From NCBI GenBank assembly GCA_051313645.2, contig JBNRSN020000012.1, positions 115,630,001 to 115,694,000 of the forward strand: DNA of 64,000 bases. The letters run 5' to 3'. Made by a program: the position numbers and the translations under genes. The notes under the pieces are model-generated. The model saw nothing but the letters and a program-made list of their open reading frames with translations, ran no database searches and was not told the DNA's origin. This document shows, piece after piece, positions 211 to 57,532 of this stretch. The stretch is from Centroscyllium fabricii. Lineage: Eukaryota. Numbering within the stretch: position 1 is the stretch's first letter; each line of letters starts with the position of its first letter.

Positions 211-513
211 AAATTTGTGTTGCGTTGTGACATGTGGATGTGTGAAATGAAAAAGAAGTTTGTATTTTTAACATCTATGAGCTGTTGGGCAATGGAACAG
301 GAAACCATCCTTTTCTAATATGGATAATTTGAGATCTTTGTTTAATATTAACACATCTTATTAATAAGAAAGCATCTTACAGAGATTTCACCTGATTCCC
401 ACCACTTTTTCTGTTGTGTTACATGTTAATGGTTGTGAGCATTAACCATGCTGTCAAACCATGCAGATTTTTCTCCAGATAAAATATTTCTATAAACATT
501 TTATTCACCACAG

Positions 514-627
514 AGATTGTCAGGACTATACTACAACATTCATCGATCCTATCTTAAGATCACAGAGGTTGTACATTTGGAAAAGCGTTTGTTTGGAAGA
601 TACTACCGAGTTGCATTTTATGGACAG
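514..627 (+). CDS. DOCK10: DOCK10 internal exon (DHR2), RLSGLYYNIHRSYLKITEVVHLEKRLFGRYYRVAFYGQ
   Basis: cag/ acceptor at 511-513, /gtaagt donor at 628, 114 nt, phase 0-0; matches recalled DOCK10 KLSDLYYDIHRSYLKVAEVVNSEKRLFGRYYRVAFYGQ. Confidence 0.95.
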
Positions 628-1293
628 GTAAGTGCAATGTGGTAATGTGACATTGAATATAATTCCTCATTCTGGACATTGTTTTTGTTCATTTGTGCGC
701 TTTGCACAGCAGTGAAAACAATGAATGTATTCCACATCAAGCCCAGTCTCAAATGCAATTTTAAACAATTTTTTAAAAATACAATAAATGTTTCTTGCGG
801 TGTTATTTTGCATTGACAGCAGTAATTTTATGATTATCTGCACCCTGCTGTATACAGTCTGCATGAATTGCTTTTATAAATATTTTGATCGTACTTTACG
901 CTTATCTTTTCATTTGGAATTTGAAATACTTAATGAAACACTGTTCCTATGCGCAGATTGTATTTCTTCAGCTATCGACGTTTGATTCTCAAAGACATTT
1001 TGTTTCTGTGCTAAATTCCACTGACCCATGACAACACAGAAGCTATTAATCTCTGACAAACTTCCCAGTCAGTTCTATTTCCATATACAATATTCAAATT
1101 CTTGTATCATTTGATGCAGCTTCAGAATCTAACATCAGATTCTGTATGATCCCATACAATCTATTGCTGCTCATCACAAGTGAGTATTTTGAAGAATCAC
1201 CCTGACATTATGGAGCACAATTTTAATAAATAACTAGAAGCTTCTTTAATATCTGCCTGGACCTGTGTCTTAAAGGTGGTATATGATCTAATA

Positions 1294-1666
1294 CAGGTCC
1301 GGCACCGTTAATCCGGCACCGTTGGGACCAGGCCGGTGCCGGACTAGTGAAAAATCCGAACGACTGAAGTTTCGGCGAGCGCATACGCAGACCATTCAAA
1401 ATGGCCACCACGCATGTGCAAACCATTAAAGATAGCCGCCGCACATGCAAACCATTCAAAATGGCCACCGCGCATGCGCTGACCATTCAAAATGGCCGCC
1501 CCGCATGCGCAGTCATTCAAAATGGCCACTGCACATGCGCAGACCAGTCGGAGAGAGGCCCGCACATCGCGAGCAGCCCTGGGATCACGTGGGCCACCAG
1601 ACGGATTTGTGCCGGACCACTGAGGTTTCCTGATTAACGGTTTCCGGATTAACGGTGCACAACCTG
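1294..1666. mobile_element. Tc1/mariner(pogo/Tigger)-type MITE containing a ~30-bp tandem array
   Basis: TA on both sides (1292-93, 1667-68); TIR CAGGTnnnGCACCGTTAATCCGG (20/23 match); related to the element at 33174-34342. Confidence 0.85.
1379..1545. repeat. ~30-bp minisatellite (cgcatgcgcagaccattcaaaatggccacc), about 5.5 copies
   Basis: Diverged tandem copies visible directly. Confidence 0.9.
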
Positions 1667-3636
1667 TAATAGGTCTGGAGAGTTAGTGTAAACGTAGTAA
1701 CACCTAGGAATAGTCTAGGTAGTGACCATAACAACTGTAGTTTAACCTGGAATGTTGACCAGGCTAAAATGTGATGTGTGCAGCCCACTGCCGAACAAAA
1801 CACACACAATTCACCTTTCAATAGCTGAAAACCTGATACAATTTGGATTGTTGGTTTTTATTACCTTGAGCAGACAACCTTTGCCCATTGTAAAGATAGA
1901 AAACAGTTTTTTAATAAACTGCACTGGGCATCTCTCCTCAGTAAGTTCTCTCTCAGAGCCAAAGAATCATTAGTGTTAAAAGTAAATTCAGAGTTTGTAC
2001 AACACAAACTGTCACAGACCTCACCTGAGTAATTAGTTCTTCCCCAAACACTTCTTATGCTTCACAAAAGTTATGGTTTTAAACTGAATTGAAACTATTT
2101 AGTGTTTGTGTCAATGAAATGGAAAATTTAATTAGAATAAGAACTAATACCCATTTTGTATTGGAATGTTTAGAAATTGAGGAACAAGAGAGAGGTATTT
2201 AGTTCATGTGCTATGATTCAGAGTTATGGACCAATGATTGAGACAGGCTACACCAATCATTCAGTAGGTCTATCATCTCCATCAAATGTGAACATACAAA
2301 AATGATGGGCAGGAATAGACCTGCTGGTCCACCAAACCTTGCAAACTGTTTCTTAAGTTAACTGTTCTGTAATCAGATGTACCCGATTACGGTTACTTCT
2401 CTATATTGAAGACCCACTGTAAGTAGAAATTGTATATTCCGAATATTCAGGTTATGTTCTCTTGTGCCATGTTTAAAAAAATCTAATTTAAACAACATTC
2501 CTGCTTTCACTGATTTGTTTCAAAAGTTTTCAATTATATATTCCCATATCGATCTTAATTCTTGGGAAATCTATTGGCTCTCAGCTTTTCACTGTAATAC
2601 AGTTCTTTCCTAGAATAATCGAGCTGTACTTGAACAACTACAGGCAAAGCAGTCTATGTTGCACAAATCGGATGTGTGAGATTTTCAGTGATAAGTCATA
2701 TACTTGAGGTATCCATTCACAATAAAAACATAAAATGTATTTGTGAAATAGGCCACAGTGGGATGGTTAAGTCACAGTAATTGATTCTTCTTTCCTCTTT
2801 CTTATTCGGTTTTCCATGTTTGTCTTTTTTTCTTCAAAATTTCTATTTCCTTCTTCATAACCGATGGAATTTGCAAAAGATTTTTCCTGCTTTTTCTTGA
2901 GACAGCTATGGAAATAATCGGCCCCATTGTCGCAGCTGAGCCGACAGACGGAATTTAGTCGTAGTAGCAGCTATGGAGATATGACTATCTAGAATGCACA
3001 GTAGTAGTGAAAATTATCCATTGAAATGATCAGGCCTTCAGTGTCACCTATGAATTCCGGGATAGCGACCTCCTGCTTTCTCCCTCTTTCTAATGCCACT
3101 GATTCTTGGTACAGTTCACACATTGATATGTTTGGCGATTGTGGTCTTCAAGTAGGAGATTGTGATTTCCTGTGTGAAATCCCATCTAAAAGTGGCATTC
3201 TTGTCGGGCCCGATTACAGGGGGGAAAGAATTAACTAGATAATGTGAGTTATTCGGAGCTCTAAGGATGCCATCAGAATATTTGGTAACAAGCAGTTCGG
3301 TTCAACCTCTTGCGGACACAAACTCTTCAATATTATAACTGAGTGTTACAGTGTATGTCACTGAGCATTCATAACAGACTGCAACAAGTAGTAAACTAAT
3401 TGCACTTTTCTCCAATACGGTTTCCAAGCTTCTCTTTGCCTAACTATCTAATTCAATCATGTTTAGCTTTTGGAATGTGTAAAGTATAATCACAAATACT
3501 GTCGAACCATAGAAATATCAATGTTTATTTTCACCAGTAAATTGGGTGCAGTATTGCTTACTTGTTTAGTTAACCTTGGCAACAATGTATGTACTTGTTT
3601 TAATGCAGAATTTTTCCTTTTTTCCACTTCTTCAAG

Positions 3637-3642
3637 GCTGTG
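3637..3642 (+). CDS. DOCK10: Candidate 6-nt DOCK10 microexon (GCT GTG = Ala-Val)
   Basis: Long polypyrimidine tract ending ttcttcaag/GCTGTG/gtaagt (consensus donor); phase 0-0, giving FYGQ-AV-AFFEE; upstream TGC at 3604-3606. Confidence 0.8.
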
Positions 3643-4281
3643 GTAAGTTTTTCTCTCTGCTCCTTTCATTTCTGCCACTCCTCTAGCCTTCCCTTAACAC
3701 CACAAATAAATAAACTAACTTTGTGTCAGTAATTTAATTACATTGATGAAAATTATGATCAGCATGCTACCTGAGATATGGAAATACTATGCAGCTCAGA
3801 TTGCAATGTTATTTTTCCTTTTATAAATGTGGATAGAAAAGTGCTAAGTGTTTTCAATAACTACTGTATGCTTTTGTCAGCATTTACACAGACCGTAACA
3901 GATCTAGGATGGGACTGATCTAGGCCATTGGCACCATGTATATTACTACTCAATGTATACTCTGTTTATAACACAGCCCCCACTAAGATCAGGATTACTG
4001 AGGCAGATTGCCATCTCCTGAAGTGTATGCAGTGCATTGCCCAGATACTAAGTTGCAAGCCCAGCACATATCCTGAGTGTCATTTATTGCAATAATTATC
4101 AGTCATTATTTACACTACCCAATGCAAAGTCAGGCAACAGAGGTGGGAATATTTGCACCACACTCGGTCCATAGTAAATAACTGTATAAAAGCAAAATAC
4201 TGCAGATGCTGGGAATCTGAAATAAAAACAGAAAATGCTAGAAATACTTAGCAGGTCAGACAGCATCTGTGGAGAGAGAAA

Positions 4282-4512
4282 CATAGAAACATAGAAACAT
4301 AGAAACTAGGAGCAGGAGTAGGCCATTCGGCCCTTCGAGCCTGCTCCGCCATTCAATGAGATCATGGCTGATCATCCAAACCCAGCACCCCACCCCTTCC
4401 CTCTCCCCAATCCCTATCGAGCCTGCATCGACACATATCCCACCCTATCGCCGTAACCCCACATATTTAATTACCCTAACACTAAGGGTCAATTTATCAT
4501 GGCCAATCAACC
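4282..4512 (-). mobile_element. HE1-like SINE 3' half with CR1-derived tail
   Basis: (catagaaa)n tail; body matches the SINE at 59904-60276. Confidence 0.85.
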
Positions 4513-4565
4513 GAGTTAACATTTCAGGTCAATGTTCTGACAAACGGTCATCAGCCTGAAACGTT

Positions 4566-5865: not shown

Positions 5866-8800
5866 GTGGCATGGAGACCAACCTCAAGAGTTGTTTATTT
5901 CCTGTGCAGTTGGAGGCAAAGAATCACACAGCAATTCATGTATGGATGCTGTGGACTGCCTTCTTGTTCTGGCAAGCCATAAAGCTCTCTTCCTACCCAT
6001 ACAGTTCCAGCAATATTTATTTTATATGTTGCTGACTTGCATGGACCTTCCAATACAGTCCACAGCCAGAAAGTTATGATTCCAACTGACTATTGAATGC
6101 TTTTACCAGTCGATTTGTGTGCATACACTGCTGTTTTCAGTGGTGGAAGTTCTCTCCTTCCCTTCTCACGGTGCAGACAGGGAGGATTTAGAGTTCCAGG
6201 AGTTGAATAAAAAACGGTTCACAACATTATGATCATGGAATCAGAGAATGTTAAGCATAGAAACAATCCATTTGCCCCCTCAATTTTTGCCAATGTTGTT
6301 CACCACACAAGGCAGCTACTCTAATCCCACTCTTCTGTTTGCTCAGCATCTATGATATATTAGAAATCTTACATTTGTGCACACTTCCAGTCTAAAAACC
6401 CTCATTGTTATTGCATTTTTGTCATACTTTTGTGCCATTTTTTCCCATTATGAGGTCTTATGGTCACACTGTAATTACACCCTCCCACCAATGGTGGCAT
6501 TGTAACAGCTAAACTTTGCATCTCCCAGCTCCTTAGCCTTTACTGCAGAGAAACTCTTATTGTCCAACAGCTCCACTTCTTTGCTTCCCAAATTTCTGTA
6601 TGTTTTGCTATTTAACTACAAATAATGTAAAATCAAAATATTGTATGAAAATAAGGGCAGAATGTATGACTTTATAATAGTGACTGAATTTCATGTGTGT
6701 GCCCTGATCCAATTATCCCACACCCTCTAATCCCGCTTCACTCAAAGACTATATGCCACGTTTACATATAGATTGGACTAGCCAGATTAGTAACAACACG
6801 ATGGAGGAAGAATTTCTGGAGTGTACACGAGACGGTTTCCTAGACCAAAATGTCGAGGAACCAACTCGGGATCAGGCCATCTTAGACTGGGTACTGTGCA
6901 ATGAGAAAGGATTAATTAGCAATCTTGTTGTACGAGGCCCATTGGGTCGGAGTGATCATAATATGATCGAATTCTCACTCAAGATGGAGAGCGAAGAAAT
7001 TGACTCAGAGACTAAGGTCCTGAATTTAAGTAAAGGGTACTATGATGGTATGAGACGAGAGTTGGGTACAATTGATTGGGAGGTGTCGCTCAGGGGGCTG
7101 ACGGTGGATCAACAATGGCAGGCATTCAAAGATTGAATGGAAGAAGCGCAGAGCTTGTTTATACCAGTTGGGCATAAAAATAAACCAAAAAAGGTGACTC
7201 AACCGTGGATAACAAGGGAAATTAGGGATAACATAAAATCCAAAGAAAGGGCATATCAACTGGCCAAAAAAAGCACCAAACCTGAGGATTGGGAACAATT
7301 CAGGTTACAGCAAAGGAGGACAAAGGGATTAATTAAGAGGGGGAAAATAGATTACGAAAGAAAGCTTGCGGCAAACATAAAAACTGACTGCAAAACCTTT
7401 TATAGATACATTAAAAGGAAGAGACTGGTGAAATCCCGAGTCGGGCCCTTGCAGTCCGAATCAGGAGAATATATAATGGGGAACAAGGAAATGGCGGACC
7501 AATTAAATTCATATTTTGGTTCTGTCTTCACAAAGGAGGACACAAATAACCTCACAGAGATGTCGGGAAACATAGGGACTAATACAAGGGAGGAACTGAA
7601 AGAAATCAATATTTCTAAGGATATGGTGTCCAGGAAGTTGAAGGGATTAAAGGCCGACAAATCCCCAGGGCCTGATAATCTGCATCCTAGGGTGCTTAAG
7701 GAAGTGGCCCTGGAGATATCAGATGCTTTGAGGATCATTTTCCAGAACTCAATAGACTCTGGAATGGTGCCCATGGATTGGAGGGTGGCTAATATTACCC
7801 CACTATTCAAAAAGGGGGTTAGAGAGAAAGCAGGGAATTATAGACCGGTAAGCCTTACATCGGTTGTGGGCAAAATGCTAGAGTCCATTATTAAGGACGT
7901 AATAGCAGATCACTTGACAAATAGTGATGGGATCGGACAGAGTCAACATGGATTTACAAAATGTAAATCGTGCTTGACTAATCTATTGGAATTCTTTGAG
8001 GATGTAACTGATAAAATAGATAGGGAAGAGCCAGTAGATGTGGTTTATCTGGACTTCCAGAAAGCCTTTGACAAGGTCCCTCATAGGAGATTGGCATGCA
8101 AAATTAAGGCTCATAGGATTGGGGGCAGGGTATTGACGTGGATAGAGAACTGGTTGGCAGATAGAAAACAGAGAGTTGGGATAAATGGGTCGTTTTCGGA
8201 TTGGCGGGCAGTGACTAGTGGGGTACCGCAGGGGTCTGTACTGGGACCCCAGCTGTTCACAATATATATTAATGACCTGGATGAGGGAATTGGATGTAAC
8301 ATCTCCAAATTCGCAGATGACACTAAGCTAGGAGGGGGGGTATGCTCTGAGGAGGATGTCCGGAAGCTCCAGTACGATTTTGACAGATTGGGGGATTGGG
8401 CGAATACATGGCAAATGCACTATAATGTGGATAAATGTGAGGTTATCCACTTTGGTAGCAAAAACAGGAAGGCAGATTATTATTTGAACGGCAATAGATT
8501 GGGAGAGATGGGAAAGTGCAAAGAGATCTGGGTGTTCTTGTGCACCAGTCACTGAAGGTGAGCATGCAGGTGCAGCAGGCGGTTAAAAAGGCAAATGGTT
8601 GTTACCAAATTAACGACCTCGGAGATGAGATATTAAGAGGTGAAACAATCGGCTTTTATTAGCTAAAGGTGGACATGCACCAGCTAGTCGACCGTCCCCA
8701 GGAATGGCCGGGGGAAGGGAGACGGCCGCCTATGTACCTGGTCCTGGGAGGGAGGAGTCACAGGCGGAGCCAGCATGGGCATGTCCAGGTGATCACACAC

Positions 8801-25393: not shown

Positions 25394-25540
25394 GCATTTT
25401 TTGAAGAAGATGACAGCAAAGAGTATATTTATAAAGAGCCCAAGCTAACTGGACTCTCAGAAATTTCCCAGAGGTTGTTGAAACTATACTCGGATAAATA
25501 TGGAGCAGAGAATGTGAAAATGATCCAAGATTCTAACAAG
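25394..25540 (+). CDS. DOCK10: DOCK10 exon [49 protein letters not shown]
   Basis: cag/.../gtaaag boundaries, 147 nt, phase 0-0; DOCK-D DHR2 motif [10 protein letters not shown]. Confidence 0.97.
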
Positions 25541-40233: not shown

Positions 40234-40372
40234 ACAATTTGCAGCGACATGCGGACATGCTCTAGAGGTTAATGAACGGCTTATTAAAGAAGACCAATTA
40301 GAATACCAGGAGGAGATGAAGTCTCACTACAGAGATCTGCTCAGCGAGTTGTCTGCAGTCATGAATGAGCAG
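40234..40372 (+). CDS. DOCK10: DOCK10 exon (R)QFAATCGHALEVNERLIKEDQLEYQEEMKSHYRDLLSELSAVMNEQ
   Basis: tgcag/.../gtttgc boundaries, 139 nt, phase 2-0. Confidence 0.96.
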
Positions 40373-57456: not shown

Positions 57457-57532
57457 CTGAATTATGCTTTCACTTCTTCCAACTTCTACTCTTCTCAATC
57501 TATTATCTCCTTCACTACTGTTACCAAAAATG
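57457..57532 (+). CDS. DOCK10: Candidate alternative DOCK10 penultimate exon LNYAFTSSNFYSSQSIISFTTVTKN(G), 76 nt; if its donor is not used the frame ends at TGA 57573
   Basis: tttttatttttctctggcag/ acceptor, G/gtatgt donor, in frame after MNEQ; same length and residue pattern as the recalled mammalian LCRGPCLYSFCSSVSSISLSTVSKS exon. Confidence 0.75.

Follow-up and report, generated by a model that had tools for sequence, protein, structure and literature searches.

The plus strand of the window, a 64,000-nucleotide (64-kb) stretch of Centroscyllium fabricii DNA, encodes the 3' portion of DOCK10. A tblastn search with two cartilaginous-fish DOCK10 proteins placed exons near positions 511-627, 25394-25540, 25845, 27774, 32774, 40230, 57457, and 61850. 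The gene is assigned to DOCK10 within the DOCK-D family: its DHR2 exons are nearest DOCK10, and the position equivalent to human R1876, encoded by the first of these exons, is an arginine as opposed to the threonine of DOCK9. This upstream exon matches cartilaginous-fish DOCK10 at 33 to 35 of 37 residues and ends in phase 0 at 627, after FYGQ, with gtaagt following directly. The downstream exon is identical at 47 to 49 of 49 residues to DOCK10 from chimaera, shark, and skate, and at 41 of 49 to the human protein. Its first residue (25394-25396) is alanine in all 43 cartilaginous-fish DOCK10 sequences among the proteins listed, and glycine in the listed bony vertebrates. The encoded protein departs from positions conserved in its relatives at 523-525, 580-582, ∼25999, and ∼32801, the changes being G for E/D, L for S, F for S, and W for R; the tryptophan lies in the AYARAF motif and is common to the window and Amblyraja.

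The 24.8-kb intron between the two exons (628-25393) hosts a predicted 6-nt cassette microexon, GCTGTG, flanked by introns of 3.0 and 21.8 kb (Table 1). The initial annotation had described a frame-preserving Ala-Val microexon between FYGQ and AFFEE, and the phase 0 boundary and the start of the next exon at 25394 bear this out; the motifs it gave (ttttaatgcag at 3598-3608, the pyrimidine tract, AAG, GCTGTG, GTAAGT, and ACTAAC) are all in place. Over the 25 nt scored, the tract has a C/T fraction of 0.88. The A at 3603 is the predicted branch point, from its fit to the yUnAy consensus.

Table 1. Coordinates of the DOCK10 microexon, its flanking exons, and its candidate splicing signals in the window
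Feature	Position	Strand	Remarks
Upstream DOCK10 coding exon	514..627	+	End of DHR2 lobe A and first strand of lobe B; start at 514 or 516
Predicted branch point	3599..3604	+	A at 3603, 34 nt 5' of the exon; consensus fit only
UGC	3604..3606	+	At -33, 5' of the pyrimidine tract; followed by AG at 3607-3608 (-30)
Pyrimidine tract and AAG acceptor	3611..3636	+	Tract 3611-3633; AG 3635-3636
6-nt cassette microexon GCTGTG	3637..3642	+	Ala-Val, phase 0; splice signals, six bases identical to mouse, AV isoforms
Consensus donor GTAAGT	3643..3648	+	Sequence
Candidate bipartite QKI response element	3714..3733	+	ACTAAC core 3714-3719; half-site TAAT 3730-3733; other half-site at 3695
Candidate RBFOX site GCATG	3762..3766	+	Pentamer only, without the 5' T
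Downstream DOCK10 coding exon	25394..25540	+	AFFEE...SNK

These signals stand out from the background of the intron, which contains 646 in-frame candidates of 3 to 27 nt bounded by AG and GT. Eighteen of them have a GTRAG donor, and among these the GCTGTG exon ranks first by pyrimidine content. The pattern AG-GCN-GTN-GT occurs once in the 24.8 kb, at this site, against 0.225 occurrences expected from Markov resamples; none of 200 resamples held that pattern with a GTRAG donor, nor did any of the 200 hold a 6-nt candidate of any kind with a GTRAG donor and a tract fraction of at least 0.85. The predicted RNA structure of 3560-3780 was not unusual (z, +1.19). Four of 21 sequencing data sets were compared over 400-4150; all consist of contigs and cover the surroundings of the exon, none contains a splice joint, and the one guessed to be RNA spans intron sequence only. 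A lower divergence rate of the exon-bearing piece was rejected as evidence: one set gave 93/1058 versus 173/1507 (P = 0.03), and a second set gave P = 0.13 in the opposite direction. The upstream AG at 3607-3608 could yield a 34-nt, frame-shifting version of the exon. We regard the GCTGTG exon as almost certainly real in the C. fabricii window and likely to be spliced there as in other jawed vertebrates.

Database proteins place the same insert across the jawed vertebrates, as the initial annotation had inferred. A query with the downstream exon only returned 5 Ala-Val (AV) forms, from chimpanzee and frog, among the 120 proteins listed. A second query, with a frog region that contains AV and therefore favors AV in the ranking, gave 65 AV forms among 120 proteins listed, along with 30 that lack an insert, 7 with other sequences, and 3 unparsed; the other 15, all RefSeq ray-finned fish models, read AA (3), IV (3), VA (5), or IA (4). 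AV was seen in DOCK10 from mammals (echidna and opossum among them), a bird, turtles, frogs, lungfish, gar, zebrafish, and catfish. The mammalian isoforms reading GQAVGFF that the initial annotation mentioned are present in the databases, and mouse UniProt DOCK10 isoforms 2 and 3 include AV. Inserts that start with VS or VR in some database proteins look like donor-site read-through and were left uncounted. A Mus pahari model reads FQAV, which suggests that another acceptor, 6 nt farther 5', is used in this mouse.

Among the cartilaginous-fish matches listed, in which the largest cluster is represented by 15 of its 43 members, AV is found in 16 of 43 proteins and in 5 of 11 species. It is present in 5/5 proteins from Scyliorhinus canicula and 1/1 from Chiloscyllium plagiosum among these matches, and both forms occur in Rhincodon (AV in 3/5) and Amblyraja (AV in 4/7); in Callorhinchus, 3/3 RefSeq models and 0/7 UniRef entries listed contain it. 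The product predicted for the window exon, FYGQAVAFFEE, is found in proteins of other species: XP_042194969.1 (Callorhinchus), XP_048460342.1 (Rhincodon), XP_032887032.1 (Amblyraja), and XP_038671181.1 (Scyliorhinus). The window exon thus has the attributes of a jawed-vertebrate DOCK10 Ala-Val microexon, namely 6 nt, phase 0, AV at the FYGQ junction, and AG/GT bounds.

The mouse exon provides the closest comparison. Row chr1_-_80522184_80522190 of a mouse MicroExonator table gives a transcript identifier; we take it to be Dock10 from the position of the locus, an assignment that fits the AV-containing proteins. In that table (PMC7821500, Additional file 2), the row reads GCTGTG with 566 junction reads, type "Annotated," a conservation score of 3.64, and a U2 score of 85. 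The mouse exon therefore has the same six bases and the same Ala-Val at the FYGQ junction as the window; its flanking introns differ (∼1.5 and 6.5 kb versus 3.0 and 21.8 kb), as does the residue after the insert (G, versus A in cartilaginous fishes). In a zebrafish brain table, a single 6-nt row reads GCAGTG and has 89 reads; the row names no gene, and we infer that it is dock10. Because AV isoforms exist in many species and the mouse row is annotated with 566 reads, we conclude that the DOCK10 Ala-Val exon is real, is about as old as jawed vertebrates, and is already known from databases in mouse and shark, being missed by some annotations only. The earlier description of the exon as hidden and easily missed consequently holds in part: it is annotated in mouse and in RefSeq models of five cartilaginous fishes, and it is absent from the listed isoforms of 6 of the 11 cartilaginous-fish species. 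As a discovery the exon itself is minor, and what remains of interest is its function and regulation.

Downstream of the exon lies a combination of candidate motifs (Table 1) in which the bipartite QKI element follows the definition of PMC12064062. A lone QKI core has a 6.8% chance of falling in 150 nt, and none of the four other exons checked has a core in the next 150 nt. The bipartite element together with GCATG occurs in 36 of 6,385 overlapping 150-nt windows, a motif combination that was chosen post hoc. YGCY motifs at 3658, 3673, and 3765 are uninformative (88% by chance). The arrangement resembles that of the 33-nt striated-muscle microexon of Snap23, which, according to PMC12064062, is activated by QKI, RBFOX2, and MBNL through downstream motifs: ACUAAC with a half-site, GCAUG, and YGCY. 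The window matches this pattern with an ACUAAY core, a UAAY half-site, and a downstream GCAUG, the last as a pentamer only. The two systems also differ: in Snap23 the donor is a weak GC, each kind of site occurs twice, and knockdown has provided proof, whereas the window has a consensus donor and one candidate core.

Expression of the mouse exon bears on this comparison in a mixed way. In the mouse data set (PMC7821500), the exon belongs to cluster Neuro-Muscular NM4 (PC1, 0.026; PC2, -0.037, with the direction of PC2 guessed from three rows), and its differential flags for mid/hindbrain, forebrain, skeletal muscle, heart, and adrenal are all FALSE. Muscle enrichment of the Snap23 type would fit the cluster label, yet the muscle and heart flags are FALSE like those for brain, so that any tissue bias is mild or noisy. 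We propose that many cells leave out this short exon by default; that QKI binding to the bipartite element would raise its inclusion, aided by RBFOX at the GCATG and perhaps by MBNL; and that muscle and maturing nerve would thereby come to include it. Since the motif combination was tested post hoc and the RBFOX site lacks its 5' T, we give roughly equal chances for and against QKI and RBFOX as the candidate main activators, and we rank them ahead of SRRM3/4. Taken as a whole, a conserved Ala-Val cassette that is activated by QKI/RBFOX in muscle and nerve and fine-tunes the exchange factor is the explanation toward which we lean slightly.

The initial annotation had instead pointed to control by the neural regulators SRRM3/4, under which the exon would be skipped outside neurons and turned on through the upstream UGC. 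The exon has the size and conservation of this class (3 to 27 nt, frame preserving, and conserved across jawed vertebrates), as well as a consensus donor. Its upstream architecture is another matter. In SRRM-type microexons, the tract and branch point are described as lying at a distance from the AG, and the UGC as filling the space that separates tract from AG (10.1101/2024.09.17.613571). In the window, the tract runs right up to the AAG, a second AG lies at -30, and the UGC, at -33, is 5' of the tract. Chance would supply a TGC within 40 nt in ∼49% of cases, which makes it weak evidence. In favor of SRRM3/4, the UGC does lie 3' of the predicted branch point and 5' of the AG, and a UGC is described as not strictly required (Bonnal et al., 10.1101/2024.09.17.613571); the 6-nt dock9b exon of zebrafish is neural (dPSI, 55.6) and srrm3/4 dependent (PMC12626424); the probable zebrafish ortholog of the DOCK10 exon has brain reads; and the PC1 loading of the mouse exon is positive. 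Against it stand the FALSE brain flags in the mouse rows and the absence of the gene from lists of neural exons. The supplements of PMC12626424 (708 zebrafish neural exons, 6-nt dock9b among them) contain 0 matches to dock10, which coverage may explain. Neither dock10 nor dock9 nor dock11 matched in 12 of 13 supplementary files of another zebrafish study. In 12 of 19 files of PMC7935315, DOCK10 is missing from an SRRM4 inclusion list that holds DOCK9 and DOCK11 exons, and low coverage could again explain it. Across the supplement files searched for PMC12626424, PMC12626420, PMC7935315, PMC9303857 (12 of 18 files), and PMC12868881, a DOCK10 6-nt row was not found. The DOCK10 exon of PMC12424998 is a different, negatively charged exon and was discarded. 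Neural SRRM3/4 control is thus poorly supported by the files searched and by the position of the UGC, and we consider it unlikely, if still a serious competitor; the QKI motif, also pointed out in the initial annotation, is the better regulatory lead. More generally, small size, conservation, and a UGC close by do not by themselves place an exon in the SRRM3/4 neuronal program.

A further alternative is that the exon is real and that the strength of its tract and donor brings about partial inclusion in many tissues; tissue bias would then be no more than mild, and no one factor would be in overall control. The directly adjoining tract and AG, the presence of AV in many RefSeq models, and, in mouse, the five FALSE flags and the U2 score all agree with such broad inclusion. 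The mouse cluster label, however, is Neuro-Muscular rather than constitutive; none of the Logan/JGI mammalian assembly members listed that span the junction has AV, the 4 AV forms among 53 cluster members all being annotated entries; and all five solved DOCK10 constructs (5/5) lack the insert. We judge broad inclusion improbable. That the site is a chance or decayed cryptic one, unspliced in C. fabricii, is scarcely credible: the lack of AV among the listed isoforms of 6 of 11 cartilaginous species would agree with it, but the six bases are identical to mouse, the signals are intact and unique in 24.8 kb, and AV is annotated in chimaera, sharks, and skate.

In the paralog DOCK9, which the initial annotation had said to have an alternative exon at this junction, inserts are indeed found at the same place as the DOCK10 Ala-Val. 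Among 120 DOCK9 proteins listed, 86 lack an insert, 18 carry a 12-residue piece, 8 carry AA plus the 12-residue piece, 1 carries AA alone, and 7 are of other kinds. A 6-nt DOCK9 microexon (zebrafish DreEX0028046, human HsaEX0020668) and a 36-nt exon (HsaEX0020665) were paired with these inserts by length only. A search of the 64-kb window for a counterpart of the 12-residue DOCK9 exon gave no match. The DOCK9 events are neural and SRRM3/4 responsive, unlike the QKI/RBFOX regulation that we favor for DOCK10. The Ala-Val and Ala-Ala exons may be copies of a single 6-nt exon that predates the duplication and later came under separate control (SRRM3/4 in neurons for DOCK9, QKI/RBFOX in muscle and nerve for DOCK10), the two residues retuning dual Cdc42/Rac exchange by tissue; we offer this scenario as a doubtful one.

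The position of the insert was mapped onto human DOCK10 with a construct numbering offset of 1693, which reproduces the published F1846, R1876, L2059, and Y2126; Ala-Val is thereby placed between Q1885 and G1886. Two AlphaFold models, one of the form with AV and one of the form lacking it, both predict a strand, a loop, and a strand at the junction, and the insert would form the first residues of the loop. Both models are of low confidence (pLDDT, 45 and 50; root mean square deviation, ∼22 Å from the crystal structures) and are globally wrong; a comparison of the two forms was therefore discarded as too poor, and placement in the loop rests on local secondary structure. Inclusion of Ala-Val would lengthen this lobe B loop from 10 to 12 residues. 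The loop has 9, 10, and 11 residues in 63, 24, and 2, respectively, of the 89 parsable among 150 family representatives listed; none of the 89 has 12, an absence that says nothing about the age of the exon, since each cluster is represented by a single protein.

Should the two strands pair as a hairpin, the insert would occupy the GTPase-distal end, opposite the end that holds R1876 and L1903. L1903 presumably has a contact role in GTPase binding. It is mutated in the Rac1 complex 8I5V, and R1876 bonds Asn43 of RAC3 and helps to explain dual specificity (10.1101/2022.06.15.496229). Because the loop is predicted to lie away from the R1876 contact, we expect fine-tuning, through packing of lobes A and B or a partner surface, rather than on/off control of catalysis; a GTPase-distal loop with a tuning effect is, on these models, marginally the better guess. 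Retention of an optional two-residue insert in a catalytic exchange factor domain, in lineages as far apart as sharks and mice, implies selection. The literature searched, with most subscription papers outside its scope, yielded no study devoted to the DOCK10 Ala-Val exon or the function of its insert.

A second cassette exon lies farther downstream. Its 76 nt (57457-57532, plus strand), between the exon that ends at 40372 and the last exon (from 61850), shift the frame and swap the C-terminal tail, and RefSeq isoforms from shark and skate show both tails. A retina-enriched 76-nt exon of chicken DOCK10 (GgaEX0006872) is alike by length only. DOCK9 and DOCK11 have SRRM-responsive microexons near their 3' ends (8 nt in DOCK9; 18 nt in human and 12 nt in zebrafish DOCK11), and given these, alternative C-terminal tails look like a theme of the DOCK-D family. 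Upstream of the Ala-Val exon, a 375-bp insertion (1292-1666) is absent from the contigs of three related organisms and present at very high copy number in one of them; on visual inspection it shows terminal inverted repeats, TA at its ends, and repeats of ∼33 bp inside, and it may be a Tc1/mariner-type MITE. Of two further intron stretches, the one at ∼4190-4560 resembles a shark SINE and the one at ∼6700-8000 a fragment of a CR1-type LINE.
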